DNA of 41,182 nt from Escherichia coli (GTDB lineage Bacteria; Pseudomonadota; Gammaproteobacteria; Enterobacterales; Enterobacteriaceae). The position numbers were made by a program, and so were the translations under genes. Shown here piece by piece: positions 7,982-41,182 of this stretch. Location of the stretch: NCBI RefSeq assembly GCF_003334355.1, contig NZ_QOWP01000031.1; one strand, written 5' to 3'. A model generated the notes under the pieces. The model did not search any database and was not told where the DNA came from. It saw only the letters and a list, made by a program, of their open reading frames with translations. Position 1 is the stretch's first letter. Every line of letters starts with the position of its first letter.

Positions 7982-8090
7982 GAAACGGAGCGGCACCTCT
8001 TTTAACCCTTGAAGTCACTGCCCGTTTCGAGAGTTTCTCAACTCGAATAACTAAAGCCAACGTGAACTTTTGCGGATCTCCAGGATCCGC
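7982..8090 (+). ncRNA. oxyS: OxyS small regulatory RNA
   Basis: 109-nt sequence GAAACGGAGCGGCACCTCTTTTAACCCTTGAAGTCACTGCCCGTTTCGAGAGTTTCTCAACTCGAATAACTAAAGCCAACGTGAACTTTTGCGGATCTCCAGGATCCGC matches oxyS as I remember it; ends in a GC hairpin (GCGGATCTCCAGGATCCGC) followed by T8 at 8091-8098. Confidence 0.85.
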
Positions 8091-8152
8091 TTTTTTTTGC
8101 CATAAAAAAGCCCGGCGATAAGCCAGGCTCAAATTTATACATATAAATGTTC

Positions 8153-17812: not shown

Positions 17813-18664
17813 ATGTATCACGACGTCAGCTATCTGCTCTCCCGCCTGATCAACGGCCCGCTGTCCCTGCGCCAGATTTACTTTGCCAGCAGTAACGGCC
17901 CGGTGCCCGATCTTGCGTATCAGGTCGATTTTCCACGGCTGGAAATTGTGCTGGAAGGTGAGTTTGTTGATACCGGCGCTGGAGCAACGTTAGTTCCCGG
18001 CGATGTGCTGTACGTTGCCGCTGGTGGCTGGAATTTCCCACAATGGAAAACACCCGCTACCACCTTTAGCGTGCTGTTTGGCAAACAGCAACTCGGCTTC
18101 AGCGTCGTGCAATGGGATGGCAAACAATATCAAAATCTGGCGAAGCAACACGTCGCCCGGCGCGGCCCACGCATAGGTTCTTTTCTGCTACAAACGCTCA
18201 ATGAAATGCAAATGCAGCCGCAGGAGCAGCAAACGGCAAGGCTTATCGTCGCCAGCCTGCTTAGCCACTGCCGCGATTTGCTTGGCAGCCAAATCCAGAC
18301 CGCCTCACGCAGCCAGGCACTATTTGAAGCTATTCGCGATTATATCGACGAACGCTATGCCTCCGCGCTTACCCGCGAATCTGTTGCGCAGGCGTTTTAT
18401 ATTTCGCCAAATTACCTCTCGCACCTGTTTCAAAAAACGGGGGCCATTGGTTTTAACGAATACCTGAATCACACGCGACTGGAGCACGCTAAGACGTTAT
18501 TGAAAGGCTATGACCTGAAGGTAAAAGAAGTGGCGCACGCCTGCGGCTTTGTCGACAGCAACTACTTCTGCCGTCTGTTTCGTAAAAACACCGAACGCTC
18601 GCCGTCGGAATATCGTCGGCAGTACCACAGCCAACTGACAGAAAAACCGACTACTCCAGAATAA
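17813..18664 (+). CDS. yijO: AraC/XylS-family transcriptional regulator YijO
   Basis: 283-aa ORF; C-terminal AraC-type HTH recognisable (...YISPNYLSHLFQKTGAIGFNEYLNHTRLEHAKTLL...). Confidence 0.85.
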   Translation: MYHDVSYLLSRLINGPLSLRQIYFASSNGPVPDLAYQVDFPRLEIVLEGEFVDTGAGATLVPGDVLYVAAGGWNFPQWKTPATTFSVLFGKQQLGFSVVQWDGKQYQNLAKQHVARRGPRIGSFLLQTLNEMQMQPQEQQTARLIVASLLSHCRDLLGSQIQTASRSQALFEAIRDYIDERYASALTRESVAQAFYISPNYLSHLFQKTGAIGFNEYLNHTRLEHAKTLLKGYDLKVKEVAHACGFVDSNYFCRLFRKNTERSPSEYRRQYHSQLTEKPTTPE

Positions 18665-18992
18665 GATGGGTTTGCTGCGGCGCAGAAAGCACTTTGCGCA
18701 CCGCGCTCATTACCCGCTGCGGCTCACGCAGGAATGCGTAGATGCTGCATTGCACATAGCGGCAATGTTCAAATCGCTCGGCACCGGCAAGCTCGATATC
18801 CGTAATCAACAGAGCAACATCCGCCCGACGGATATCCTCGTCCGCTAAACGATTCTCCGTTCCCAGCGCGCCCTGAGTTTCAATGCTGACTCCCCACTTC
18901 TCTAACAGGCACAACTTTTCCAGCCGTTCCGCCGCCATATAAGTATGCGCCACGCCACTGACGCAGGCGGTTACTGCCACCAGGTATGCCAT
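18651..18992 (-). CDS. frwD: PTS fructose-like EIIB component FrwD
   Basis: 113-aa ORF with the EIIB motif VTACVSGVAHTYMAAE; convergent 14-bp overlap with the yijO 3' end. Confidence 0.88.
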   Translation of the reverse strand: MAYLVAVTACVSGVAHTYMAAERLEKLCLLEKWGVSIETQGALGTENRLADEDIRRADVALLITDIELAGAERFEHCRYVQCSIYAFLREPQRVMSAVRKVLSAPQQTHLILE

Positions 18993-18993
18993 T

Positions 18994-19872
18994 TTAACCT
19001 CCCACGGTAACCTGAAATCCGGCCCGTTCTGCCATTTCGCGCATCGTTGTCACATCGGCTGACGACGGCGCAGGCACCTCTTTCATCGACCATGTTTTCC
19101 CCAGCAGGCGGTATTTCGGTTCGCCGTACTGATGAAACGGTAACAGATGGATCTGCCTGATTTTCAGCGGGATCAGTACATCCAGCGCCTGCTGCATATT
19201 CTCCCGGCTGAGCGTGAAACCAGGGATCAACGGTAAACGCGGGATCACGTTGACACCCTCACTCACCAGCAAACGCAGATTCTCCAGCACGCGTGGCAGG
19301 TTCATCTTCACCACATCCCGCGCCTGAGTCGCGTCCATAATTTTTAAATCGAACAGCACTTCATCGCACAATTTCGCCAGCGGTAACAGCTTGCTTGCTG
19401 GCGCGTCTCCGGCAGTTTCAATGGCGCATGACACACCCCACAGCCGCAGTCGCTGTAAAAAACGGGTAGCAAACTCCGCCTGCATTAACACTTCGCCGCC
19501 AGAAAGCGTGACGCCGCCGCCGGACGTGCGAAAAAAAATGTCATCTTTCATCACTTCCCGTTCCAGAGCGTCAAGGCTGATATCGCGACCAATCCGTTCA
19601 AACGCCCCGGAGGGGCATTCATCCGCATCACGCAAACATTTCGCACAGTGCAGACATTTCGCCTCTCTGCGTACCGTCTGGATTTTGCCGGAGATCGACT
19701 CCGGATTAGCACACCACGGGCAAAGATGCGGACAGCCTTTAAAAAAGACCACCGTACGAATGCCCTCACCGTCATTCAGTGAATAACGCTGAATGTTGAA
19801 AATGCGCGCCACATCATTGCGGCGCGTTTCCACAACGTTACAGCTGATGCGCTGTCCGGCGGATGATGTCAT
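18994..19872 (-). CDS. pflC: Glycyl-radical enzyme activating enzyme (radical SAM) PflC
   Basis: Trimmed to MTSSAGQRISCNVVETRR... (292 aa); radical-SAM CxxxCxxC in GCPHLCPWCANPE; cat at 19870-19872. Confidence 0.88.
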   Translation of the reverse strand: MTSSAGQRISCNVVETRRNDVARIFNIQRYSLNDGEGIRTVVFFKGCPHLCPWCANPESISGKIQTVRREAKCLHCAKCLRDADECPSGAFERIGRDISLDALEREVMKDDIFFRTSGGGVTLSGGEVLMQAEFATRFLQRLRLWGVSCAIETAGDAPASKLLPLAKLCDEVLFDLKIMDATQARDVVKMNLPRVLENLRLLVSEGVNVIPRLPLIPGFTLSRENMQQALDVLIPLKIRQIHLLPFHQYGEPKYRLLGKTWSMKEVPAPSSADVTTMREMAERAGFQVTVGG

Positions 19873-22135
19873 CCTGGATCTCCTTCGACAGTTCGACAAA
19901 GAAGGCGCTGTATCCGGCAACGCGCACCACCAGCCCGGCATAATCTTGTGGGCGCTGTTGCGCTTCCCGCAACGTGTCGGCGTTCACCACGTTAAACTGA
20001 ATATGTTGTAACTTAAGCTGGGTAAACGCCCGTAAGAAGTCGGCCAGTTTGCGTAATCCCGCTTCACCTTCCAGGGTCGCCGGAGTGAATTTCACGTTCA
20101 GCAATGTACCGTTAGACAGCAGTGTGTTATCGAGCTTACTGACTGACTTCAGTACCGCCGTTGGCCCTTGTGCGTCCTGACCCAGCATAGGTGACAAGCC
20201 GCCGTCTGCCAGCTGTTCTCCGGCAAAACGACCGTCTGGCATCGCGCCAACCACCGATCCCAACGGAACGTGAGCAGAAACGGTATACGATCCCGGCGTG
20301 AAGTAGCCGCCGCGCGGGTTCTGGTATTTTTCCACTTCTTTGCAGTAGTGGCGCAACAGTTCGGCGCTAATGTTATCCACCTCGTCGATATCGTTACCGT
20401 ATTTCTCAAAGCGGTTAATTAAGCGAGCGCGGACTTTTTCGCCTTCTGGCGTTGCAAAGTTGGCTTTTAATACCGACAGCAATTCGTCAAAACTTAAACG
20501 CTGTTGATCAAAAACCATCCCTTTCAACGCATGGAGAGAATCGCTCAGGTTGGCGATACCGATCCCCTGTACGCCGGAGAAGTTATAACGCGCGCCGCCA
20601 TCGGTAATATCGCGGCCTTTTTCCAGACAATCGCTGATAAAAGACGAGAGCAGCGGTACAGGTGCCCAGTCGCGATGGCCGATATCGCAAATATTACTGC
20701 CTTCAACCATCAGGGTGATGTAGTGGCTGATCTTGGCACGGATCTGTTCCAGTAAACCTTCATAAGTCAGCGCGGCATTGCCTTCATTTTCATGCAGGCA
20801 GATTTCCATCACTTTCAGCAGGTTAAACATCGCGATGTCATGCAAGCCGTAGGTTCTGCCGGGAATAGATAATTCCACACAGCCCACTACGGAATAGTCG
20901 CGCGCATCTTCCAGCGAAACGCCACGGTTGAGGAACGCTGGCACCACCACTTCATCGTTAAAGATTTGCGGAATACCGGTGCCGAGGCGAATGGTTTCGG
21001 CGGTTTTCATCAGGAACGGCGTGTCGATCAAGGCGTTAGTGCGCACGCCGAGGTTCGGTTGCGGTAATTGCACGCTTTGATAGGCGTCAAGGCAAAGGAA
21101 CGAAAGCACGTTCACCGCGCTACGTCCGTTCTCGGTTAACCCGCCGAGCAGTGCGGTATAGCCGGTCGGGAAACCGGCGAAATAACGCGCGCTGCTGGTG
21201 GAGCGCAACAGCACGATGTCGTTGCATTTCACCCATAAAGATTCGAGCAGTTCTTTCAGGAACGCCGCATCTTCGCCCTGGGTTAATGATGTCTGATAGA
21301 ACGGCAACATATACTGGTCGAAGCGCCCCAACGATAGCGAACTGGCGTTGGATTCGTATTGCAGAATGATGTTCATGTACCAGAATAACTGGCACGCCTG
21401 CCAGAACGTCTGCGGCTTATGTTGCGCGTTATGGCGGGAGATCTCCGCAATAGTCAGCAGCTCTTCGCGACGCTGGGCATCTGTGCAGTTTGCCGCCATC
21501 GTTTCCGCCAGTTCGGCGTAACGCAAAATGTGTTTCTGCGAGGCTTCCAGCAGTAACAGCGCTGCCTGATAAAAGTGATTCTCCGGCTGTTGCTGACAAT
21601 GTTGCTGCATCTGTGCTACCAGCTCCCCCAGCCCGTGATTCAGCAGGCGTGGGTAATCAATAATAATGTGCCCCTGGCCTTTATCTGTCTGGTTGATGCT
21701 GAAAATCTGCGTGCTGGTCGCGGCTTTTACTTCATCTGTCATCTGCCCGTTGATGAAATCTTTCATCGAACGTTTTTCCCAGTACGGGAACAACTCTTCG
21801 CGGTAGATACGTTTATCTTCTTCGCTGATAGCAAAGCGGTCCTGCGGACGCGTCGGGAATTGATCCAGCTCTTTCAGCAGCCAGTAAGGGTCCATTTCCG
21901 GCGACATAATCCCGGCGCGCGGTTTTACGGTGCGGTTACCGGCAATCAGTTCTTCATCACGAATCGAAATTTCAACATGTTCAAGGATATACGCTGTTGC
22001 TTTCGCCCGGCGCAATATCACCGGTTCGCCTTCGGTTTGCCGATGGCTGGCGGTATAAAGCAGCGCCCGCTCCAGCGAGATTTCACGGGTATTGGAAAAC
22101 AGTGCAGTTTTGAGGCGAGAGATACGATTCGTCAT
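19838..22135 (-). CDS. pflD: Pyruvate formate-lyase-like glycyl radical enzyme PflD
   Basis: 765-aa ORF; C-terminal glycyl-radical motif (VRVAGYSAFF); 3' end overlaps the pflC start by 35 bp. Confidence 0.9.
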   Translation of the reverse strand: MTNRISRLKTALFSNTREISLERALLYTASHRQTEGEPVILRRAKATAYILEHVEISIRDEELIAGNRTVKPRAGIMSPEMDPYWLLKELDQFPTRPQDRFAISEEDKRIYREELFPYWEKRSMKDFINGQMTDEVKAATSTQIFSINQTDKGQGHIIIDYPRLLNHGLGELVAQMQQHCQQQPENHFYQAALLLLEASQKHILRYAELAETMAANCTDAQRREELLTIAEISRHNAQHKPQTFWQACQLFWYMNIILQYESNASSLSLGRFDQYMLPFYQTSLTQGEDAAFLKELLESLWVKCNDIVLLRSTSSARYFAGFPTGYTALLGGLTENGRSAVNVLSFLCLDAYQSVQLPQPNLGVRTNALIDTPFLMKTAETIRLGTGIPQIFNDEVVVPAFLNRGVSLEDARDYSVVGCVELSIPGRTYGLHDIAMFNLLKVMEICLHENEGNAALTYEGLLEQIRAKISHYITLMVEGSNICDIGHRDWAPVPLLSSFISDCLEKGRDITDGGARYNFSGVQGIGIANLSDSLHALKGMVFDQQRLSFDELLSVLKANFATPEGEKVRARLINRFEKYGNDIDEVDNISAELLRHYCKEVEKYQNPRGGYFTPGSYTVSAHVPLGSVVGAMPDGRFAGEQLADGGLSPMLGQDAQGPTAVLKSVSKLDNTLLSNGTLLNVKFTPATLEGEAGLRKLADFLRAFTQLKLQHIQFNVVNADTLREAQQRPQDYAGLVVRVAGYSAFFVELSKEIQDDIIRRTAHQL

Positions 22136-22185
22136 GAGGAACTCCTGTGGGAAAGCGAACCCGCCCTTGCGAGCGGGAGAAGAAC

Positions 22186-22506
22186 TTAAGCGGTTTGCGC
22201 CAGGTGAGCTTCAATTTTGCTCATAATGGCGTCAGCACGTTTTACCGCATCGCTGATGTTGACGCGCACGATGGTCTTGCCAGCAAAACGCTCTTCAAAC
22301 TTGATGCCGATATCTTTGGTCAGAATCACCATATCAGCGCTCGCCACGTCTTCCGCTGTCAGTTCATTTTCCAGACCAATTGACCCCTGGGTTTCTACTT
22401 TCACTTCCCAGCCTTTCGCTTTCGCGGCACTTTCCAGCGCCTCTGCTGCCATATAGGTATGGGCAACACCTGAAGGACATGCGGTTACTGCAATAATTTT
22501 CGTCAT
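22186..22506 (-). CDS. frwB: PTS fructose-like EIIB component FrwB
   Basis: 106-aa ORF with VTACPSGVAHTYMAAEALE; paralogous to FrwD. Confidence 0.88.
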   Translation of the reverse strand: MTKIIAVTACPSGVAHTYMAAEALESAAKAKGWEVKVETQGSIGLENELTAEDVASADMVILTKDIGIKFEERFAGKTIVRVNISDAVKRADAIMSKIEAHLAQTA

Positions 22507-22520
22507 GGCTTGTTCCTCAA

Positions 22521-23600
22521 TTAATTAATTTCAAAATCCAAATCCAGGTCGTCTTCTTTTTCATCAGTCGAAGACCCATTTTTACGCGCCAGACTTTTCA
22601 GCACGTTCACACAAACAGCCGTCACCACTGCTCCGACAGCCACTGCGGCGATATAACCCAGCTTGCCTTCAACCACCGGCAGTACAATCAGACCACCCCA
22701 GCCTGCATAGCACTGCGCACCGACCAGCGCCGCAGTTACCGCACCACAAACAGAACCAACCATGATGGAAGGAATGACACGCAGCGGATCGGCAGCGGCG
22801 AAAGGAATCGCCCCTTCAGTAACCCCAACGCACCCCATCACCAGCGCCGCTTTACCAGTTTCGCGCTCTTCTGCGGAGAAATTTTTACGACCAATCAGCG
22901 TCGCCAGCCCCATCCCCAGCGGTGGAACACAAATCCCAACAGCGGCAATAGCCACCACGGTATAAACACCCTGAGCAACGCAAATCAGCATGAAGGCATA
23001 GGCCACTTTGTTAACCGGACCGCCCATATCGAACGCCAGCATCAGACCCATGATCACCGCCAGCATAACAATGCTGCCCTGCTGCATCCCCTGAAGCCAC
23101 TGAGTCAGGCTGTTGGTCAACGCCCCTACAGGCTCGCCCAAGCCCCACATCATGATGCCTGCGGTAATCAGTGTGCCGACGATAGGAATGATGAAGATAG
23201 GCATCACCGAGCGCAGAACTTTATGCACCGGAATTTTCTTCAGGTAATGCACCACGATGCCGCCGATAATCCCGGCGATCAGCGCACCAAAGAAGCCCGC
23301 ACCAAAGCTGTTACCAACCCAGGCACCGATAGCGCACGGAGCCAGCGCAGAACGCTCTGCAATGGAGTAACCAATGTAAGCGGCGAGGAAAGGCACCATC
23401 AGCGTCAAACCCGCAACGCCGATATCAAACAGTTTTTTCAGATTCGGATCGGCTACGGCATCCGGCACTGCGCCTTTGCCATACAACATGACGGAAACCG
23501 CCAGCAAAATACCGCCCGATACCACGAAGGGAATCATGTGTGAAACGCCCGTCATTAAATGCTGACGGGTATTTTTCAGGATCTGCACCAACTCATTCAT
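22521..23600 (-). CDS. frwC: PTS fructose-like EIIC permease FrwC
   Basis: Trimmed to MNELVQILKNTRQHLMTGVSHMIPFVV... (359 aa); polytopic membrane protein; cat at 23598-23600. Confidence 0.88.
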   Translation of the reverse strand: MNELVQILKNTRQHLMTGVSHMIPFVVSGGILLAVSVMLYGKGAVPDAVADPNLKKLFDIGVAGLTLMVPFLAAYIGYSIAERSALAPCAIGAWVGNSFGAGFFGALIAGIIGGIVVHYLKKIPVHKVLRSVMPIFIIPIVGTLITAGIMMWGLGEPVGALTNSLTQWLQGMQQGSIVMLAVIMGLMLAFDMGGPVNKVAYAFMLICVAQGVYTVVAIAAVGICVPPLGMGLATLIGRKNFSAEERETGKAALVMGCVGVTEGAIPFAAADPLRVIPSIMVGSVCGAVTAALVGAQCYAGWGGLIVLPVVEGKLGYIAAVAVGAVVTAVCVNVLKSLARKNGSSTDEKEDDLDLDFEIN

Positions 23601-23908
23601 AAGCTGCTCCCGGGCTTGCAAAAGCCCATGTCCATATTTTTGATGGAGGAAACAATAGGCAATCGCAGGCGGAGCAAACAGTGGATAAAAAGGCCATTTA
23701 CTGGACTTTTGTAATATCAGTACAAAAATGCGATCCGCCTCATAACTTGCGATAATCCGGAAGCATGCCGCAAAACGGCGTCTTGTGAGACGCGTCGCAA
23801 ATTGACGGTTACATTACATTTGTCCAGCTTTTGGCAGATTTGTCACATGGCAGGCCGTTGCCGTGCGCTCTTATCCTGTAAACAGAAAACCGTACCGGGA
23901 GAGAGGCA

Positions 23909-26410
23909 ATGGCCCTGATTGTGGAATTTATTTGTGAGCTACCTAACGGCGTACATGCACGTCCGGCAAGCCACGTTGAAACGCTGTGTAATACTTTTTC
24001 ATCACAAATTGAGTGGCATAACTTGCGCACTGACCGCAAGGGCAACGCCAAAAGCGCCCTTGCGCTGATTGGCACCGATACGCTGGTGGGCGATAACTGC
24101 CAGTTACTGATTTCCGGGGCCGACGAACAGGAAGCGCACCAGCGTTTAAGCCAATGGCTGCGCGATGAATTCCCCCACTGCGACGCACCGCTGGCGGAAG
24201 TTAAATCTGACGAACTGGAACCACTGCCGGTTTCACTGACCAATCTGAATCCGCAAATTATCCGCGCCCGCACCGTGTGCAGCGGTAGCGCAGGCGGCAT
24301 TCTGACGCCGATCTCTTCTTTAGATCTCAATGCGCTGGGTAATCTTCCTGTTGCCAAAGGCGTTGACGCCGAGCAATCCGCGCTGGAAAACGGCCTGACA
24401 CTGGTATTGAAAAACATTGAATTTCGACTGCTGGATAGCGACGGTGCTACCAGCGCGATACTGGAAGCTCACCGATCCCTGGCTGGCGATACTTCTTTAC
24501 GTCAGCACTTACTGGCAGGCGTCAGCGAGGGATTAAGCTGTGCCGAAGCGATTGTCGCCAGTGCACACCACTTCTGCGAAGAGTTCGCCCGTTCCAGCAG
24601 TAGCTACCTGCAAGAACGCGCCCTGGACGTACGCGACGTCTGCTTCCAGTTACTCCAGCAAATCTACGGTGAGCAACGCTTCCCGGCACCGGGAAAACTG
24701 ACGCAGCCCGCCATTTGTATGGCTGATGAACTGACCCCCAGCCAGTTCCTCGAACTGGATAAAAATCACCTCAAAGGATTGTTGCTCAAAAGCGGCGGCA
24801 CCACCTCACATACGGTGATCCTTGCCCGTTCGTTCAACATTCCAACGCTGGTTGGTGTGGATATTGATGCCCTCACTCCGTGGCAGCATCAGACGATTTA
24901 TATCGACGGCAACGCTGGGGCGATTGTGGTTGAGCCAGGGGAAGCCGTAGCCCGTTATTATCAGCAAGAAGCCCGCGTACAGGACGCCCTGCGTGAGCAA
25001 CAGCGTGTCTGGCTGACCCAACAAGCCCGTACCGCTGACGGTATCCGCATTGAAATTGCCGCTAACATCGCTCACTCCGTGGAAGCACAGGCCGCGTTCG
25101 GCAATGGTGTGGAAGGCGTTGGTTTGTTCCGCACTGAAATGCTCTATATGGATCGCACCAGTGCACCGGGCGAAAGCGAGCTGTACAACATTTTTTGTCA
25201 GGCGCTGGAGTCTGCCAACGGACGCAGCATTATTGTGCGCACTATGGACATTGGCGGCGACAAACCCGTTGATTATCTAAACATTCCCGCAGAGGCAAAC
25301 CCGTTCCTCGGTTATCGCGCGGTGCGTATTTATGAAGAATACGCCTCGCTGTTCACCACACAACTACGGTCGATCCTGCGCGCCTCCGCTCACGGCAGCC
25401 TGAAAATCATGATCCCGATGATCTCCTCAATGGAAGAGATCTTATGGGTGAAAGAAAAACTGGCGGAAGCCAAACAGCAACTGCGTAACGAACACATTCC
25501 GTTTGATGAGAAGATCCAGCTCGGCATTATGCTGGAAGTGCCGTCGGTGATGTTCATCATCGATCAATGCTGCGAAGAGATTGATTTCTTTAGTATTGGT
25601 AGTAATGACCTGACGCAGTATCTGCTGGCGGTGGATCGCGATAACGCTAAGGTTACTCGTCACTACAACAGCCTGAATCCGGCATTCTTGCGGGCGCTCG
25701 ATTACGCCGTGCAAGCGGTGCATCGCCAGGGAAAATGGATTGGTCTGTGCGGTGAGCTGGGAGCGAAAGGTTCCGTGCTGCCGTTGCTGGTCGGTTTAGG
25801 GCTGGATGAGCTGAGCATGAGCGCACCATCAATTCCGGCGGCGAAAGCGCGGATGGCGCAACTTGATAGCCGTGAGTGCCGCAAGTTGCTCAACCAGGCA
25901 ATGGCCTGCCGTACTTCGCTGGAAGTGGAACACCTGCTGGCGCAATTCCGCATGACCCAACAAGACGCACCGCTGGTCACCGCCGAGTGCATCACACTGG
26001 AAAGCGACTGGCGCAGCAAAGAAGAAGTACTCAAAGGCATGACCGATAACCTGCTGCTGGCGGGCCGCTGCCGCTATCCGCGTAAACTGGAAGCCGACTT
26101 GTGGGCGCGCGAGGCCGTTTTCTCTACCGGTCTGGGCTTTAGTTTTGCCATTCCACACAGCAAATCAGAACACATTGAGCAATCCACCATCAGCGTAGCG
26201 CGTCTGCAAGCGCCGGTGCGCTGGGGCGATGATGAAGCGCAATTCATCATTATGTTAACCCTGAACAAACACGCTGCGGGCGATCAGCATATGCGCATTT
26301 TCTCGCGCCTCGCTCGTCGCATCATGCACGAAGAATTCCGTAACGCGCTGGTTAACGCCGCCTCTGCCGACGCTATCGCCAGCCTGCTGCAACATGAACT
26401 GGAACTGTAA
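23909..26410 (+). CDS. ptsA: Multiphosphoryl-transfer PTS protein PtsA/FrwA (HPr-like + Enzyme I + EIIA-Fru-like)
   Basis: 833-aa ORF; N-terminal HPr-like segment with His ([13 protein letters not shown]), central PEP-utilising Enzyme I region ([21 protein letters not shown]), C-terminal EIIA domain. Confidence 0.88.
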
Positions 26411-26421
26411 AAGGAAACATC

Positions 26422-27084
26422 ATGGAACTGTATCTGGACACCGCTAACGTCGCAGAAGTCGAACGTCTGGCACGCATATTCCCCATTGCCGGGGTGACAA
26501 CTAACCCGAGCATTATCGCTGCCAGCAAGGAGTCCATCTGGGAAGTGCTGCCGCGTCTGCAAAAAGCGATTGGTGATGAGGGCATTCTGTTTGCTCAGAC
26601 TATGAGTCGTGACGCGCAGGGTATGGTGGAAGAAGCGAAGCGCCTGCGCGACGCCATTCCGGGCATCGTGGTGAAAATCCCGGTGACTTCCGAAGGTCTG
26701 GCCGCCATTAAGATGCTGAAAAAAGAAGGTATTACTACACTTGGCACCGCTGTATATAGCGCCGCACAAGGGTTATTAGCCGCACTGGCAGGGGCAAAAT
26801 ACGTTGCTCCGTATGTTAACCGCGTAGATGCCCAAGGCGGAGACGGCATTCGTACGGTTCAGGAGCTGCAAGCACTGTTAGAAATGCACGCGCCAGAAAG
26901 CATGGTGCTGGCAGCCAGCTTTAAAACGCCGCGTCAGGCGCTGGACTGTTTACTGGCAGGATGTGAATCCATCACCCTGCCCTTAGATGTAGCGCAACAA
27001 ATGCTCAACACCCCTGCGGTAGAGTCAGCTATAGAGAAGTTCGAACACGACTGGAATGCCGCATTTGGCACTACTCATCTCTAA
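26422..27084 (+). CDS. fsaB: Fructose-6-phosphate aldolase 2 FsaB (TalC)
   Basis: 220-aa [36 protein letters not shown]...; transaldolase-like family. Confidence 0.9.
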
Positions 27085-27094
27085 AGGAGCAATT

Positions 27095-28198
27095 ATGGAC
27101 CGCATTATTCAATCACCGGGTAAATACATCCAGGGCGCTGATGTGATTAATCGTCTGGGCGAATACCTGAAGCCGCTGGCAGAACGCTGGTTAGTGGTGG
27201 GTGACAAATTTGTTTTAGGTTTTGCTCAATCCACTGTCGAGAAAAGCTTTAAAGATGCTGGACTGGTAGTAGAAATTGCGCCGTTTGGCGGTGAATGTTC
27301 GCAAAATGAGATCGACCGTCTGCGTGGCATCGCGGAGACTGCGCAGTGTGGCGCAATTCTCGGTATCGGTGGCGGAAAAACCCTCGATACTGCCAAAGCA
27401 CTGGCACATTTCATGGGTGTTCCGGTAGCGATCGCACCGACTATCGCCTCTACCGATGCACCGTGCAGCGCATTGTCTGTTATCTACACCGATGAGGGTG
27501 AGTTTGACCGCTATCTGCTGTTGCCAAATAACCCGAATATGGTCATTGTCGACACCAAAATCGTCGCTGGCGCACCTGCACGTCTGTTAGCGGCGGGTAT
27601 CGGCGATGCGCTGGCAACCTGGTTTGAAGCGCGTGCCTGCTCTCGTAGCGGCGCGACCACCATGGCGGGCGGCAAGTGCACCCAGGCTGCGCTGGCACTG
27701 GCTGAACTGTGCTACAACACCCTGCTGGAAGAAGGCGAAAAAGCGATGCTTGCTGCCGAACAGCATGTAGTGACTCCGGCGCTGGAGCGCGTGATTGAAG
27801 CGAACACCTATTTAAGCGGTGTAGGCTTTGAAAGTGGTGGTCTGGCTGCGGCGCACGCAGTGCATAACGGCCTGACCGCTATCCCGGACGCGCATCACTA
27901 TTATCACGGTGAAAAAGTGGCATTTGGTACGCTGACGCAGCTGGTTCTGGAAAACGCACCGGTTGAGGAAATCGAAACCGTAGCTGCACTTAGCCATGCG
28001 GTAGGTTTGCCAATAACTCTCGCTCAACTGGATATTAAAGAAGATGTCCCGGCGAAAATGCGAATTGTGGCAGAAGCGGCATGTGCAGAAGGTGAAACCA
28101 TCCACAACATGCCTGGCGGCGCGACGCCAGATCAGGTTTACGCCGCTCTGCTGGTAGCCGACCAGTACGGTCAGCGTTTCCTGCAAGAGTGGGAATAA
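27095..28198 (+). CDS. gldA: Glycerol dehydrogenase GldA
   Basis: Trimmed to [24 protein letters not shown]... (367 aa); iron-containing alcohol dehydrogenase family; atg at 27095. Confidence 0.92.
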
Positions 28199-28230: not shown

Positions 28231-28243
28231 TGAACGCAAAATT

Positions 28244-28343
28244 GCCTGATGCGCTACGCTTATCAGGCCTACGCAATCTCTGCAATATATTGAATTTGCG
28301 TGCTTTTGTAGGCCGGATAAGGCGTTCACTCCGCATCCGGCAC
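28244..28343. repeat. REP/BIME cluster
   Basis: GCCTGATGCGCTACGCTTATCAGGCCTACG ... TGTAGGCCGGATAAGGCGTTCACTCCGCATCCGGCAC; almost the same arrangement as the cluster at 38083-38181. Confidence 0.8.
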
Positions 28344-38053: not shown

Positions 38054-38082
38054 AGCAAAAAAGAGCGGCGCGGAGTGGAATC

Positions 38083-38181
38083 GCCTGATGCGCTACGCTT
38101 ATCAGGCCTACGTCATATTGCAATTTATTGAATTTGCACGAACTTGTAGGCCGGATAAGGCGTTCACGCCGCATCCGGCAT
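38083..38181. repeat. REP/BIME cluster
   Basis: GCCTGATGCGCTACGCTTATCAGGCCTACG ... TGTAGGCCGGATAAGGCGTTCACGCCGCATCCGGCA. Confidence 0.8.
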
Positions 38182-38845: not shown

Positions 38846-38848
38846 TGG

Positions 38849-38950
38849 ATGATGAAAAAAATAATTCCCGCCGTAGTCTGTTTGTTGCTTTGTAGTTGCA
38901 CGACCTTTCCGCAAGCTGTCGCTCCGGTAAACGGTGATGCCTCCAATTAG
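38849..38950 (+). pseudogene. Short lipoprotein-like ORF whose 3' end runs into the IS1 terminal repeat (probably an insertion-truncated gene)
   Basis: ATG at 38849; translation MMKKIIPAVVCLLLCSCTTFPQAVAPVNGDASN*; hydrophobic N-terminus with a Cys-containing segment; the last 6 codons and the stop lie inside the IS1-like left inverted repeat beginning at 38933. Confidence 0.35.
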
Positions 38951-38989
38951 TTGAATTAAGGATATAATACTCGCTTTTAAGGTTGTTTC

Positions 38990-39262
38990 ATGGTCACAGT
39001 TAACCTTCATTGCCCCCGTTGCCAGTCCGTTCAGGTTTACCGTCACGGGCAGAACCCAAAAAGACATGATCGATTCCGCGGCCGTGACTGTCACCGGGTA
39101 TTTCAGCTCAGTTACTGTTACGAGCCCCGTAAACCGGGAGTTAAAGACCAAATCGCTGAAATGACTTTCAACGGTGCCGGGGTTCGCGATACTGCCCGTA
39201 CGCTGAAAATCGGCATTAATACAGTCATCCGAACTTTAAAAAACTCTCGCCACGAAGAATAA
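38990..39262 (+). CDS. insA: IS1 InsA-like protein (zinc-finger / HTH transposition regulator)
   Basis: 90-aa ORF MVTVNLHCPRCQSVQVYRHGQNPKRHDRFRGRDCHRVFQ... with CxxC...CxxxC zinc-finger-like spacing and a C-terminal HTH-like segment (ARTLKIGINTVIRTLKN); similar to remembered canonical InsA at roughly half the positions. Confidence 0.75.
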   Translation: MVTVNLHCPRCQSVQVYRHGQNPKRHDRFRGRDCHRVFQLSYCYEPRKPGVKDQIAEMTFNGAGVRDTARTLKIGINTVIRTLKNSRHEE

Positions 39263-39696
39263 CGTCATCCCCGGTCGCTCATGCTGATGTGGCACTCATC
39301 TGCAAACTTAGTCAGCAATGGAGCTTTGTCGGCAGTAAAGCGCGACAGCACTGGTTCTGGTACGTGTACAACACGAAAACTGGTGGTGTTCTGGCCTACA
39401 CTTTTGGCCCCCGGACTGACGAAACCTGTCGTGAATTGCGGGCGCTGCTTACCCTTTTACCATCGGCATGTTGACCACTGACGAATGGGGTAGTTACGCT
39501 AGAGAGTTACCGAAGGAGAAGCATCTGACTGGTAAGATTTTTACTCAGCACATTGAGCGTAACAATCTGACCCTGAGAACCCGAATCAAACGTCTGGCCC
39601 GCAGAACCATCTGTTTCTCGCGTTCTGTAGAACTTCATGAAAAAGTCATCGGTGCTTTTATCGAAAATATATGTTCTACTAATTGGAGTCATCACC
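39240..39696 (+). pseudogene. insB: IS1 insB-like transposase gene, interrupted by a frameshift
   Basis: InsB-like sequence is split across two frames: 39289-39474 (...QWSFVGSKARQHWFWYVYNTKTGGVLAYTFGPRTDETCRELRALLTLLP) and 39468 onward (MLTTDEWGSYARELPKEKHLTGKIFTQHIERNNLTLRTRIKRLARRTICFSRSVELHEKVIGAF...), with the shift near 39445-39450; the second frame has no stop before the right inverted repeat. Confidence 0.55.
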
Positions 39697-39837
39697 CTTC
39701 TGATAAGCTTTCCTTGGATGATTACCAGACTGAATACACAGCCAAAGATTTTTACCTCATTCTGCTCTTTTTTCTCAAATGACATATATTATATTTTACA
39801 TCATATTCATAGGCATATGACATTCCCCCGCCCCCCA

Positions 39838-40074
39838 TTATGTCATTGTGGGTTGATGTTGGGCTTTCATAAAAAAAACATCTTTTTTTGAACTAGCATT
39901 AATTATATTTACTTTATATATTAAAATATTTTCTCCATCTGGAAATATTTTAGCCACACAATATAAAGCAGCTGAATCCGAATTACTGAAAAATATATTA
40001 TCATCACCCATAACTCCAGCCATTAAATGACTGGAGACTAAAGCAAGGAAATAACAACATTGTATTGCCTTCAT
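39838..40074 (-). CDS. Candidate Rhs immunity protein (78 aa, signal-peptide-like N-terminus)
   Basis: ATG 1 nt after the Rhs TAA stop (minus strand GGGAGTAATTAAAATGAAGGCA, with GGGAG as a Shine-Dalgarno-like sequence); MKAIQCCYFLALVSSHLMAGVMGDD... The ORF track's longer 90-aa version starts inside the rhs gene. Very AT-rich. Role inferred from position immediately 3' of an Rhs C-terminal domain. Confidence 0.55.
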   Translation of the reverse strand: MKAIQCCYFLALVSSHLMAGVMGDDNIFFSNSDSAALYCVAKIFPDGENILIYKVNIINASSKKDVFFMKAQHQPTMT

Positions 40075-40075
40075 T

Positions 40076-41182
40076 TTAATTACTCCCTTGCCTGATAATT
40101 GTAACTCCATTCCCTTTAGCTTTGGGATTATATTTTAGATAGGTGTTATTTGGTGTTCCCAAGTAACTACTGTATTCTTTTTTTCCCATTCCATTCATAT
40201 AAGAATTCGTTAAATCTTTGCTTGAAAAATTTAGACTATCATAAACATCATTTTCTTTTGTTACTTTATTTCCTTTATCGTCAGAGTAAAAACCGTGAGT
40301 GTGATAATCGCCTACTCTCTCTGAACCTTCAGGGCATTTTATATTTCGCAAGTCTACACTATCATTATCATTTGAACTTATCGGATTCATGGGGAAATAT
40401 TCACCTTGCTTCTTACATATTAGTCCACCATATTCTTTATTCTCGTTAATTGATTCTCCATTACACATTGCCAATGCAAATATTCCAATATCATCTATAT
40501 TTTTTGATTTAAATTCATATAATCCTAATGGATCCATGCTATTCACCGGGCTCAGCGGATATGTATACAGGTTCCATCCCCCCTTCAGCCCAATCGGATC
40601 CTGAGTGATATACCTCCCCCGCAGCGGGTCATAATAGCGGTGGCGGTTATAATACAGGCCGGACTCCTCATCATACTGCTGCCCCGGCAGGCGGATGAGC
40701 TGCTGCAGCTGGTGCGGGTTCTCTTCATTCAGCTGGTTACCCCATTCATCGTATTCCCGGCGTATTTCCAGCCAGTCAGGCCCGGTGGCTGACGTTAACT
40801 GGCTGTGGTGGTTATAGTAAAACGCCGATGCCCTGCCATCCGGCGTGGTGATGCGCGTGATGAGGCCCGTCACCACATCCGGGCTGTATTCTGTTGTCCT
40901 GCCTGCGGCATCCGTCTGTGCCCTGAGCCTGCCCACCGCGTCAAACTGACTCTGCGTGACGCTGCCGTCCGCGTGTTCCTTTTTCACCACCCGCTTCAGC
41001 CCGCCTTCGCCTGCGGTATGCAGGACTTCACGGCGGTTCAGGCTGTCGGTGATGGTGATGCGGTCCTTCTCATACTGATACGTGTAGCTTAAGCCTGCCG
41101 GGTTTAGCTGTTCTGTCACCCGCCCGTCGCTGTCGTAACGGTAACGGATTTCCGGCCGGCCCGTGTGACGGTGCGCCACCAT
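40076..41182 (-). CDS. Rhs-family polymorphic toxin, 3' portion (YD-repeat core end + DPxGL + 147-aa variable C-terminal domain); 5' end lies beyond the window
   Basis: ORF is open to the window edge; translation contains YD-repeat core sequence and the core-terminal motif ...[39 protein letters not shown], followed by a 147-aa AT-rich tail ([10 protein letters not shown]...RQGSN). Stop at 40076-40078. Confidence 0.85.

Follow-up and report, generated by a model that had tools for sequence, protein, structure and literature searches.

A probable 1,5-anhydromannitol locus on two divergent operons in an Escherichia coli genome

Results and discussion

We examined a stretch of Escherichia coli chromosomal DNA of 41,182 nucleotides (NCBI RefSeq assembly GCF_003334355.1, contig NZ_QOWP01000031.1; hereafter the window, numbered from its first letter) that carries the frw-pflDC cluster, in which genes of a sugar phosphotransferase system (PTS) are interleaved with those for a glycyl radical enzyme, PflD, and its activase, PflC. 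Together with the divergently transcribed ptsA, fsaB and gldA genes, this cluster very likely makes up the E. coli "anhydroglycolysis" locus for 1,5-anhydro-D-mannitol, arranged as two divergent operons. The locus is the system already characterized in strain K-12, and its function is known from work published in 2024. As summarized in the review PMC12441222, Ma et al. (JACS 2024;146:26187; doi 10.1021/jacs.4c07718) found that PflD cleaves 1,5-anhydromannitol-6-phosphate to 1-deoxyfructose-6-phosphate, and that its paralog YbiW cleaves 1,5-anhydroglucitol-6-phosphate to the same product. According to the same review, both parent anhydro-sugars, 1,5-anhydroglucitol and 1,5-anhydromannitol, receive their phosphate from a PTS, and the YbiW and PflD reactions are strictly anaerobic because they require a glycyl radical (PMC12441222). 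Two further works also cite Ma et al. 2024 for YbiW and PflD. The first-pass annotation of this DNA had called the PflD substrate and the transported sugar undefined, a statement that the 2024 assignment of PTS-phosphorylated 1,5-anhydromannitol has overtaken.

The pathway that we propose would begin with PtsA (HPr-EI-EIIA), which would take phosphate from phosphoenolpyruvate and hand it over to the EIIB proteins FrwB and/or FrwD, while the EIIC protein FrwC would import 1,5-anhydromannitol so that it appears inside the cell as its 6-phosphate. PflC would generate the glycyl radical on G741 of PflD, and PflD would then use a thiyl radical at C419, with E421 as the likely base, for a radical ring-opening C-O cleavage to 1-deoxyfructose-6-phosphate. 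FsaB would split this product into glyceraldehyde-3-phosphate and hydroxyacetone, which is the C-C cleavage step, and GldA would convert hydroxyacetone to 1,2-propanediol. The PflD reaction and phosphorylation by a PTS are established in the literature, and the gene identities, catalytic motifs and conserved linkage by our analysis of the DNA; from the latter we infer that Frw is the specific importer of 1,5-anhydromannitol. The first pass had suggested a coupled uptake and anaerobic C-C cleavage pathway. The coupling of PTS uptake to an anaerobic radical enzyme stands, but the bond broken by PflD is a C-O bond, and the C-C step is assigned to FsaB.

Organization of the locus

The layout below is based on the open reading frame listing of the window and the RefSeq annotation of a near-identical genome; bit scores are for NCBIfam models.

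17813-18664, plus strand: yijO, AraC-family regulator, convergent with frwD
18651-18992, minus strand: frwD, second PTS EIIB of the fructose family (NF007747, 224 bits; cut-off 153)
18994-19872, minus strand: pflC, radical S-adenosylmethionine (SAM) activase for the PflD glycyl radical (NF007483, 629 bits; cut-off 326)
19838-22135, minus strand: pflD, glycyl radical enzyme of 765 amino acids (equivalog NF007437, 1723 bits; cut-off 1109)
22186-22506, minus strand: frwB, PTS EIIB (NF007783, 210 bits; cut-off 135)
22521-23600, minus strand: frwC, PTS EIIC membrane permease (NF007787, 721 bits; cut-off 426)
23909-26410, plus strand: ptsA, fusion of HPr, EI and EIIA(Fru), phosphoryl relay of the Frw PTS
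26422-27084, plus strand: fsaB, fructose-6-phosphate aldolase 2 (NF009296, 384 bits)
27095-28198, plus strand: gldA, glycerol/1,2-propanediol dehydrogenase (NF047954, 753 bits; cut-off 700)

The open reading frames and the RefSeq annotation agree that frwD, pflC, pflD, frwB and frwC are co-oriented at exactly 18651-23600 with ptsA divergent, and that pflD overlaps pflC by 35 bp (19838-19872), both as first annotated. Matches to NCBIfam equivalogs above cut-off likewise bear out the earlier naming of the frw products as PTS EIIB and EIIC proteins and of PflC as a radical-SAM activase; curated cut-offs are exceeded by all of the transport, activase, aldolase and dehydrogenase proteins. The minus-strand genes form one operon with overlaps or gaps of at most 50 nt, and a conserved GGAG lies upstream of the frwC start codon, an ATG at 23600. 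On the other strand, fsaB and gldA follow ptsA in the ptsA operon, outside the interval 18651-23600 to which the first pass was confined, and on the opposite flank yijO overlaps the 3' end of frwD by 14 bp (18651-18664). The same 14-bp overlap between a yijO-type gene and frwD was seen in the Edwardsiella tarda locus (L006, 13529-13542).

None of the cluster genes has an internal stop, and each protein differs from its K-12 counterpart at 0-8 residues. The 4,950-bp region 18651-23600 finds a match in all 5,426 complete E. coli genomes and is covered to at least 80% in 5,394 of them. In two genomes, E. coli O121 strain 201805972 and strain VL7S7, the match to frw-pflDC is split into two joined pieces with an IS1A-family transposase annotated beneath, suggesting that IS1 has inserted within the cluster; for this reason, the locus may be dispensable in some lineages.

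All five fructose-family PTS modules (EIIC, EIIB, EIIA, EI and HPr) are present, with HPr seen in a PtsA ortholog. PtsA itself has an EI domain at residues 181-677 and an EIIA-Fru domain at 690-830, and Pfam finds PTS-HPr, PEP-utilizers and PTS_EIIA_2 in its ortholog. The EIIB active-site Cys10 is retained in FrwB and FrwD alike, within the common motif TAC(P/V)SGVAHTYMAAE. PflC has the CX3CX2C motif at C47/C51/C54, a second Cys cluster at C73/C76/C79, and a score of 261.9 bits against TIGR02494 (glycyl-radical enzyme activating protein; cut-off 174.35), as can be expected of a glycyl-radical activase.

Enzyme class of PflD

PflD is identical at 760 of 765 residues both to K-12 b3951, at the same genomic position, and to the protein of PDB entry 8yjo, deposited as "Probable dehydratase PflD"; it is orthologous to this crystallized and characterized K-12 protein. 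The K-12 system (PflD/PflC with FrwBCD-PtsA-FsaB-GldA) is the same locus with the same gene order and overlaps, and the differences are at the strain level only, most prominently a T632M substitution in PflD that is discussed below. Identical or orthologous PflD proteins carry the Pfam domains PF02901 and PF01228, and PflD has the PFL-like barrel, C-terminal glycine-radical domain and central Cys loop of the glycyl radical superfamily (PFL, pyruvate formate-lyase). Aligned with K-12 YbiW and PflB, to which it is 39% and 24% identical, PflD shows a catalytic loop, VVGCVE, with a single Cys (G418-C419-V420-E421), and C419 aligns with the catalytic Cys of both enzymes. Its glycine loop, RVAGYS, lies at residues 738-743 with the radical site at G741. 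The loop of YbiW also has a single Cys (IGCIE), whereas that of PflB is IACCVS, with the Cys-Cys pair C418-C419. In a family alignment of 134 diverse glycyl radical enzyme representatives (32-47% identity), Cys occupies the catalytic position in 133, Glu follows at +2 in 112, and the glycine at 741 is kept in 126.

Against TIGR01774, the model for the PFL2/glycerol-dehydratase-type subfamily, PflD scores 1350 bits (cut-off 678.2), but it reaches only 119.9 bits against TIGR01255, the equivalog for true PFL, far below the cut-off of 994.2. The G-C-x-E loop and the TIGR01774 score are those of PFL2/glycerol-dehydratase-type eliminases, and PflD has neither the Cys-Cys pair nor the TIGR01255 score of a pyruvate formate-lyase (EC 2.3.1.54). 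Because of the single-Cys G-C-V-E loop and the contrast of 1350 with 120 bits, we assign PflD by its sequence to the eliminase-type, C-O-cleaving glycyl radical enzymes rather than to the C-C-cleaving formate-lyases. The first-pass description of PflD as pyruvate-formate-lyase-like is right in that it is a glycyl radical enzyme, but PFL-type C-C cleavage does not fit (no Cys-Cys pair; 120 bits against 994), and the comparison with the active sites of other glycyl radical enzymes, which had been proposed as a check, returned an eliminase/dehydratase G-C-V-E loop and not the PFL dyad. By analogy with glycerol dehydratase and CutC, the reaction would proceed through a thiyl radical at C419 with E421 as base.

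The closest known system within E. coli is YbiW/YbiY with FsaA, the 1,5-anhydroglucitol-6-phosphate branch (PDB 8yjn, 8id7). It has a paralogous enzyme in which the G-C-x-E loop and the RVAGYS motif recur, with an activase and an Fsa aldolase adjacent, but YbiW acts on the C2 epimer, and its cluster has neither PTS genes nor an AraC-family regulator. By sequence, the structural relatives next in rank (651 and 595 bits) are B12-independent glycerol dehydratase and related eliminases (PDB 1r8w, 5i2a; CutC, HypD), which also have a single catalytic Cys with Glu at +2. These enzymes eliminate water or an amine from small diols or amines, whereas PflD opens the pyranose-like ring ether of a sugar phosphate. 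PflB/PflA resemble PflD/PflC in the superfamily fold, the glycine-loop motif and the radical-SAM activase partner, but PflB cleaves a C-C bond with the Cys-Cys dyad that PflD does not have.

Linkage across species

Scanning one genome per species gave 80 loci, over which PflD identity falls from 99% to 74%; the genera include Escherichia, Yersinia, Rahnella, Hafnia, Edwardsiella, Gilliamella, Necropsobacter and Vibrio. Genes were counted by tblastn with the window proteins in the 66 loci with enough flanking DNA, which cover Enterobacterales, Orbaceae, Pasteurellaceae and Vibrio. Near pflD, a yijO-like AraC gene was found in 65 of these 66 species loci and pflC in 64, followed by frwB, ptsA and frwD (61 each), frwC (60), fsaB (57) and gldA (37). 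The order of the cluster genes is rearranged in Orbaceae, Pasteurellaceae and Vibrio. In Edwardsiella tarda ATCC 23685 (L006, 5033-14389), an fsa-ptsA / frwCB-pflDC-frwD / AraC module lacking gldA lies between uvrC/pgsA and ato genes; this unrelated context, together with a PflD that is 91% identical to that of E. coli, suggests that the module has been horizontally transferred. Because linkage is conserved in such varied chromosomal contexts, it supports the view that PTS, radical enzyme and aldolase are functionally coupled, and it shows that the pathway extends beyond 18651-23600 on both sides.

There is also a minimal variant in Kluyvera and relatives (L037, L038, L041, L053) and in Edwardsiella piscicida (L081), where pflD-pflC is joined by a YijO-like AraC gene but PTS, aldolase and gldA are missing from the immediate neighborhood. 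The Kluyvera minimal locus adjoins hypDE, fhlA and a pectin acetylesterase gene.

The frwC-ptsA control region and YijO

The spacer between frwC and ptsA measures about 301-316 bp in most Enterobacteriaceae, and in our strain 3 of its 308 positions depart from K-12, all outside the conserved blocks. Phylogenetic footprinting of the spacer with 21, and then 66, non-redundant species sequences brought out four elements.

23680-23715, minus strand: block D, operator-like, facing frwC, conserved in the footprint: ATTACAAAAGTCCAGTAAATGGCCTTTTTATCCACT
23729-23744: CRP-type site 2, conserved across species: TGCGATCCGCCTCATA
23784-23799: CRP-type site 1, conserved from Escherichia to Gilliamella: TGTGAGACGCGTCGCA
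23813-23846, plus strand: block A, operator-like, facing ptsA, mirror image of block D: ATTACATTTGTCCAGCTTTTGGCAGATTTGTCAC

The layout, with two blocks of about 34 bp flanking two CRP-type sites, is mirror-symmetric and conserved from Escherichia to Vibrio, where both blocks persist. Blocks A and D share the skeleton TTACA-N4-TCCAG-N4-TGG...TTTTGTC and comprise two half-sites each, about 20 bp apart; from the distal end of each block to the centre of its own CRP-type site (site 1 for A, site 2 for D) the distance is 21.5 bp. Because A/T swaps and one indel set the two arms apart, this symmetry escaped an automatic repeat finder and came to light through the footprint across species. An element resembling block D also lies directly upstream of pflD in the PTS-less loci of Kluyvera and Edwardsiella piscicida.

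CRP-type site 1 is the sole match to TGTGA-N6-TCACA with at most one mismatch in the window. Site 2 is identical to the sequence listed for the ptsA/frwC CRP peak from chromatin immunoprecipitation sequencing in enterotoxigenic E. coli H10407, as given in PMC4287617, and binding of CRP to the spacer therefore has experimental support. The left half of site 2 is FNR-like (TTTGA) in most species, where CRP and FNR are not separable by sequence; no FNR site of the form TTGAT-N4-ATCAA with at most two mismatches occurs within 23601-23908.

Conserved -10-like hexamers are present on both sides, TATTGT toward frwC and TATCCT toward ptsA. If they are real, transcription would start near 23645 on the minus strand and near 23884 on the plus strand, which would place the blocks at about -35 to -71 and the CRP sites near -92. 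At araBAD and rhaBAD, AraC and RhaS bind tandem half-sites at about -35 to -72/-81, with CRP near -92/-93. The predicted geometry of each frwC-ptsA side is similar, with a two-half-site element of about 34 bp and a CRP-type site 21.5 bp beyond it; the difference is that the frwC and ptsA promoters form a mirror-symmetric divergent pair. A generic scan for sigma-70 promoters and terminators found nothing in the spacer, with counts at or below shuffle expectation. A sigma-54 reading of TGGCAG-N-TTGTC in block A was rejected by eye, because neither the spacing nor the -12 element agrees with it. A GC hairpin between frwB and pflD (22160-22177) was also discarded, its folding energy being no better than that of shuffled sequences (z = 0.04), and an Rfam scan returned no RNA family within 18651-28198.

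The candidate regulator is YijO, which a 2022 survey lists among E. coli transcription factors of unknown function (PMC9308461). Its Pfam match (HTH_18/HTH_AraC) covers only residues 179-270, with HTH_18 at 192-270. An AlphaFold2 model (predicted local distance difference test score 87) has an N-terminal beta-rich domain and an AraC DNA-binding domain; over the whole chain it resembles ToxT, Rns and CsvR in fold. A C-terminal double helix-turn-helix and an N-terminal sensor/dimerization domain, as predicted by the model, are those of an AraC/XylS regulator. We propose YijO for blocks A and D because of the co-occurrence of its gene with pflD (65/66) and the conservation of the blocks; conservation of regulator and operator motif reaches from Vibrio to Escherichia, and both stay with pflD in loci that have no PTS. 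In our judgment the chances are evenly balanced that YijO is the dedicated sensor and activator of the locus, binding the mirror-image 34-bp tandem-repeat operators at 23680-23715 and 23813-23846. Each operator would be backed by CRP 21.5 bp away, so that the spacer would act as a bidirectional switch in the style of ara and rha for frwCB-pflDC-frwD and ptsA-fsaB-gldA. Control would then be exerted by CRP together with YijO.

The PflD T632M allele

At position 20241, codon 632 of pflD reads ATG in place of ACG, which changes the Thr of the motif G-A-T-P-D-G-R to Met (T632M). This non-synonymous change is the sole difference from the nearest complete genomes over the 4,950 bp of 18651-23600. 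A 41-nt probe for the M632 allele was found in 0 of the 5,426 complete genomes, and the K-12-allele probe in 5,186. The exact M632 protein is encoded on 8 public draft contigs, one of which (GCA_043238235.1) shares 8.3 kb with the window without a difference, and this recurrence indicates that the allele is real rather than a sequencing error. Residue 632 is Thr in all 120 close orthologs examined as well as in K-12 YbiW and PflB. Across the 134 diverse glycyl radical enzymes it is Thr in 73, Leu in 40, Ser in 15 and Met in 2, and we therefore rejected the idea that T632 is invariant in the superfamily.

Alternative explanations

Several points weigh against the assignment of this locus to 1,5-anhydromannitol. 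The natural gut source of the compound is unclear, as PMC12441222 terms 1,5-anhydromannitol non-physiological in mammals. The PTS is named there only as "a phosphotransferase system", with Frw not specified (PMC12441222). The PflD of our strain carries T632M, which may affect the enzyme. As for the FsaB and GldA steps, FsaA or FsaB reportedly splits 1-deoxyfructose-6-phosphate into glyceraldehyde-3-phosphate and hydroxyacetone, and GldA is said to reduce hydroxyacetone to 1,2-propanediol; E. coli reportedly grows anaerobically on both anhydro-sugars. Finally, RefSeq, through its Prokaryotic Genome Annotation Pipeline, and NCBIfam NF007437 name PflD "formate C-acetyltransferase", and the K-12 record for pflD reads "putative formate acetyltransferase 2". 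Were all these formate acetyltransferase names correct, PflD would be a second pyruvate (or 2-ketoacid) formate-lyase, and the cluster would couple uptake of a fructose-like sugar to formate and acetyl-CoA. We find this hardly conceivable, and it is already effectively refuted by the single-Cys VVGCVE loop with Glu at +2 in place of the essential C418-C419 pair of PflB, by the score against TIGR01255, by the low identity to PflB, and by the PDB depositors and the 2024 paper, who describe a dehydratase or a ring-opening enzyme. The product name is a case of annotation lag, in conflict with the absent Cys-Cys dyad and with the 2024 assignment.

The unspecified PTS leaves room for a reading in which the enzymology is right but another system, such as the mannose or glucose PTS, phosphorylates 1,5-anhydromannitol, and Frw carries a different fructose-like sugar. 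Besides the wording of the source, this is favored by the paralogous ybiW-ybiY-fsaA cluster, which works with no dedicated PTS nearby, and by Kluyvera and Edwardsiella piscicida, which retain pflD-pflC-AraC with no adjacent PTS. However, frwC, frwB and ptsA accompany pflD in 60-61 of 66 species loci even though gene order and chromosomal context vary, the genes of the frw-pflDC operon are separated by no more than 50 nt or overlap, and the same conserved control elements serve both divergent operons, which makes a separate sugar for Frw quite unlikely. T632M raises a different doubt, namely that the pathway is impaired in this strain, with the substitution lowering or abolishing PflD activity as a seldom used locus decays; the literature assignment of the reaction applies to the K-12 allele only (PMC12441222). 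That Thr is kept in every close ortholog, in YbiW and in PflB, that the Met allele is absent from the complete genomes, and that the only change in 4,950 bp is non-synonymous all speak for impairment. Nevertheless, Leu in 40 and Met in 2 of the 134 enzymes suggest that the fold tolerates a hydrophobic residue here, the allele recurs on 8 independent public contigs, and all other genes are intact. We consider impairment unlikely.

Other features of the window

Several observations concern DNA outside the locus. Within btuB, the stretch 1061-2285 gives no megablast alignment to strain HKUOPY1, while its flanks are about 99% identical and other strains match at 99.9%; it is a divergent, mosaic allele. 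Downstream of yiiX, at 38847-41182, an IS1 transposase accompanies the remnant of an Rhs element (RHS core, DUF4329, dsORF-f3). In HKUOPY1 this place is taken by rpmE and priA, and at least 80% of the stretch is covered in 2,151 of the 5,426 genomes. The segments 28240-28342 (after gldA) and 38079-38180 each cross-match the HKUOPY1 position of the other at about 88% over 103 bp, and the Rfam match ES036 (38104-38145) overlaps the second of them; the two segments are apparently copies of one dispersed repeat, probably an element of the repetitive extragenic palindrome (REP) or bacterial interspersed mosaic element (BIME) type. The small RNA OxyS (7982-8091, 139.5 bits) adjoins oxyR, and a cobalamin riboswitch (2803-2992) lies upstream of btuB; both are ordinary and can be expected.

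Conclusions

The frw-pflDC region has been regarded as "cryptic" in E. coli for decades; with the 2024 assignment PflD acquired a physiological role, as reportedly did FsaB and GldA. For scans of genome sequences, the lesson is that annotation lag, here the label "formate C-acetyltransferase", invites this region to be flagged as a pathway of undefined substrate.

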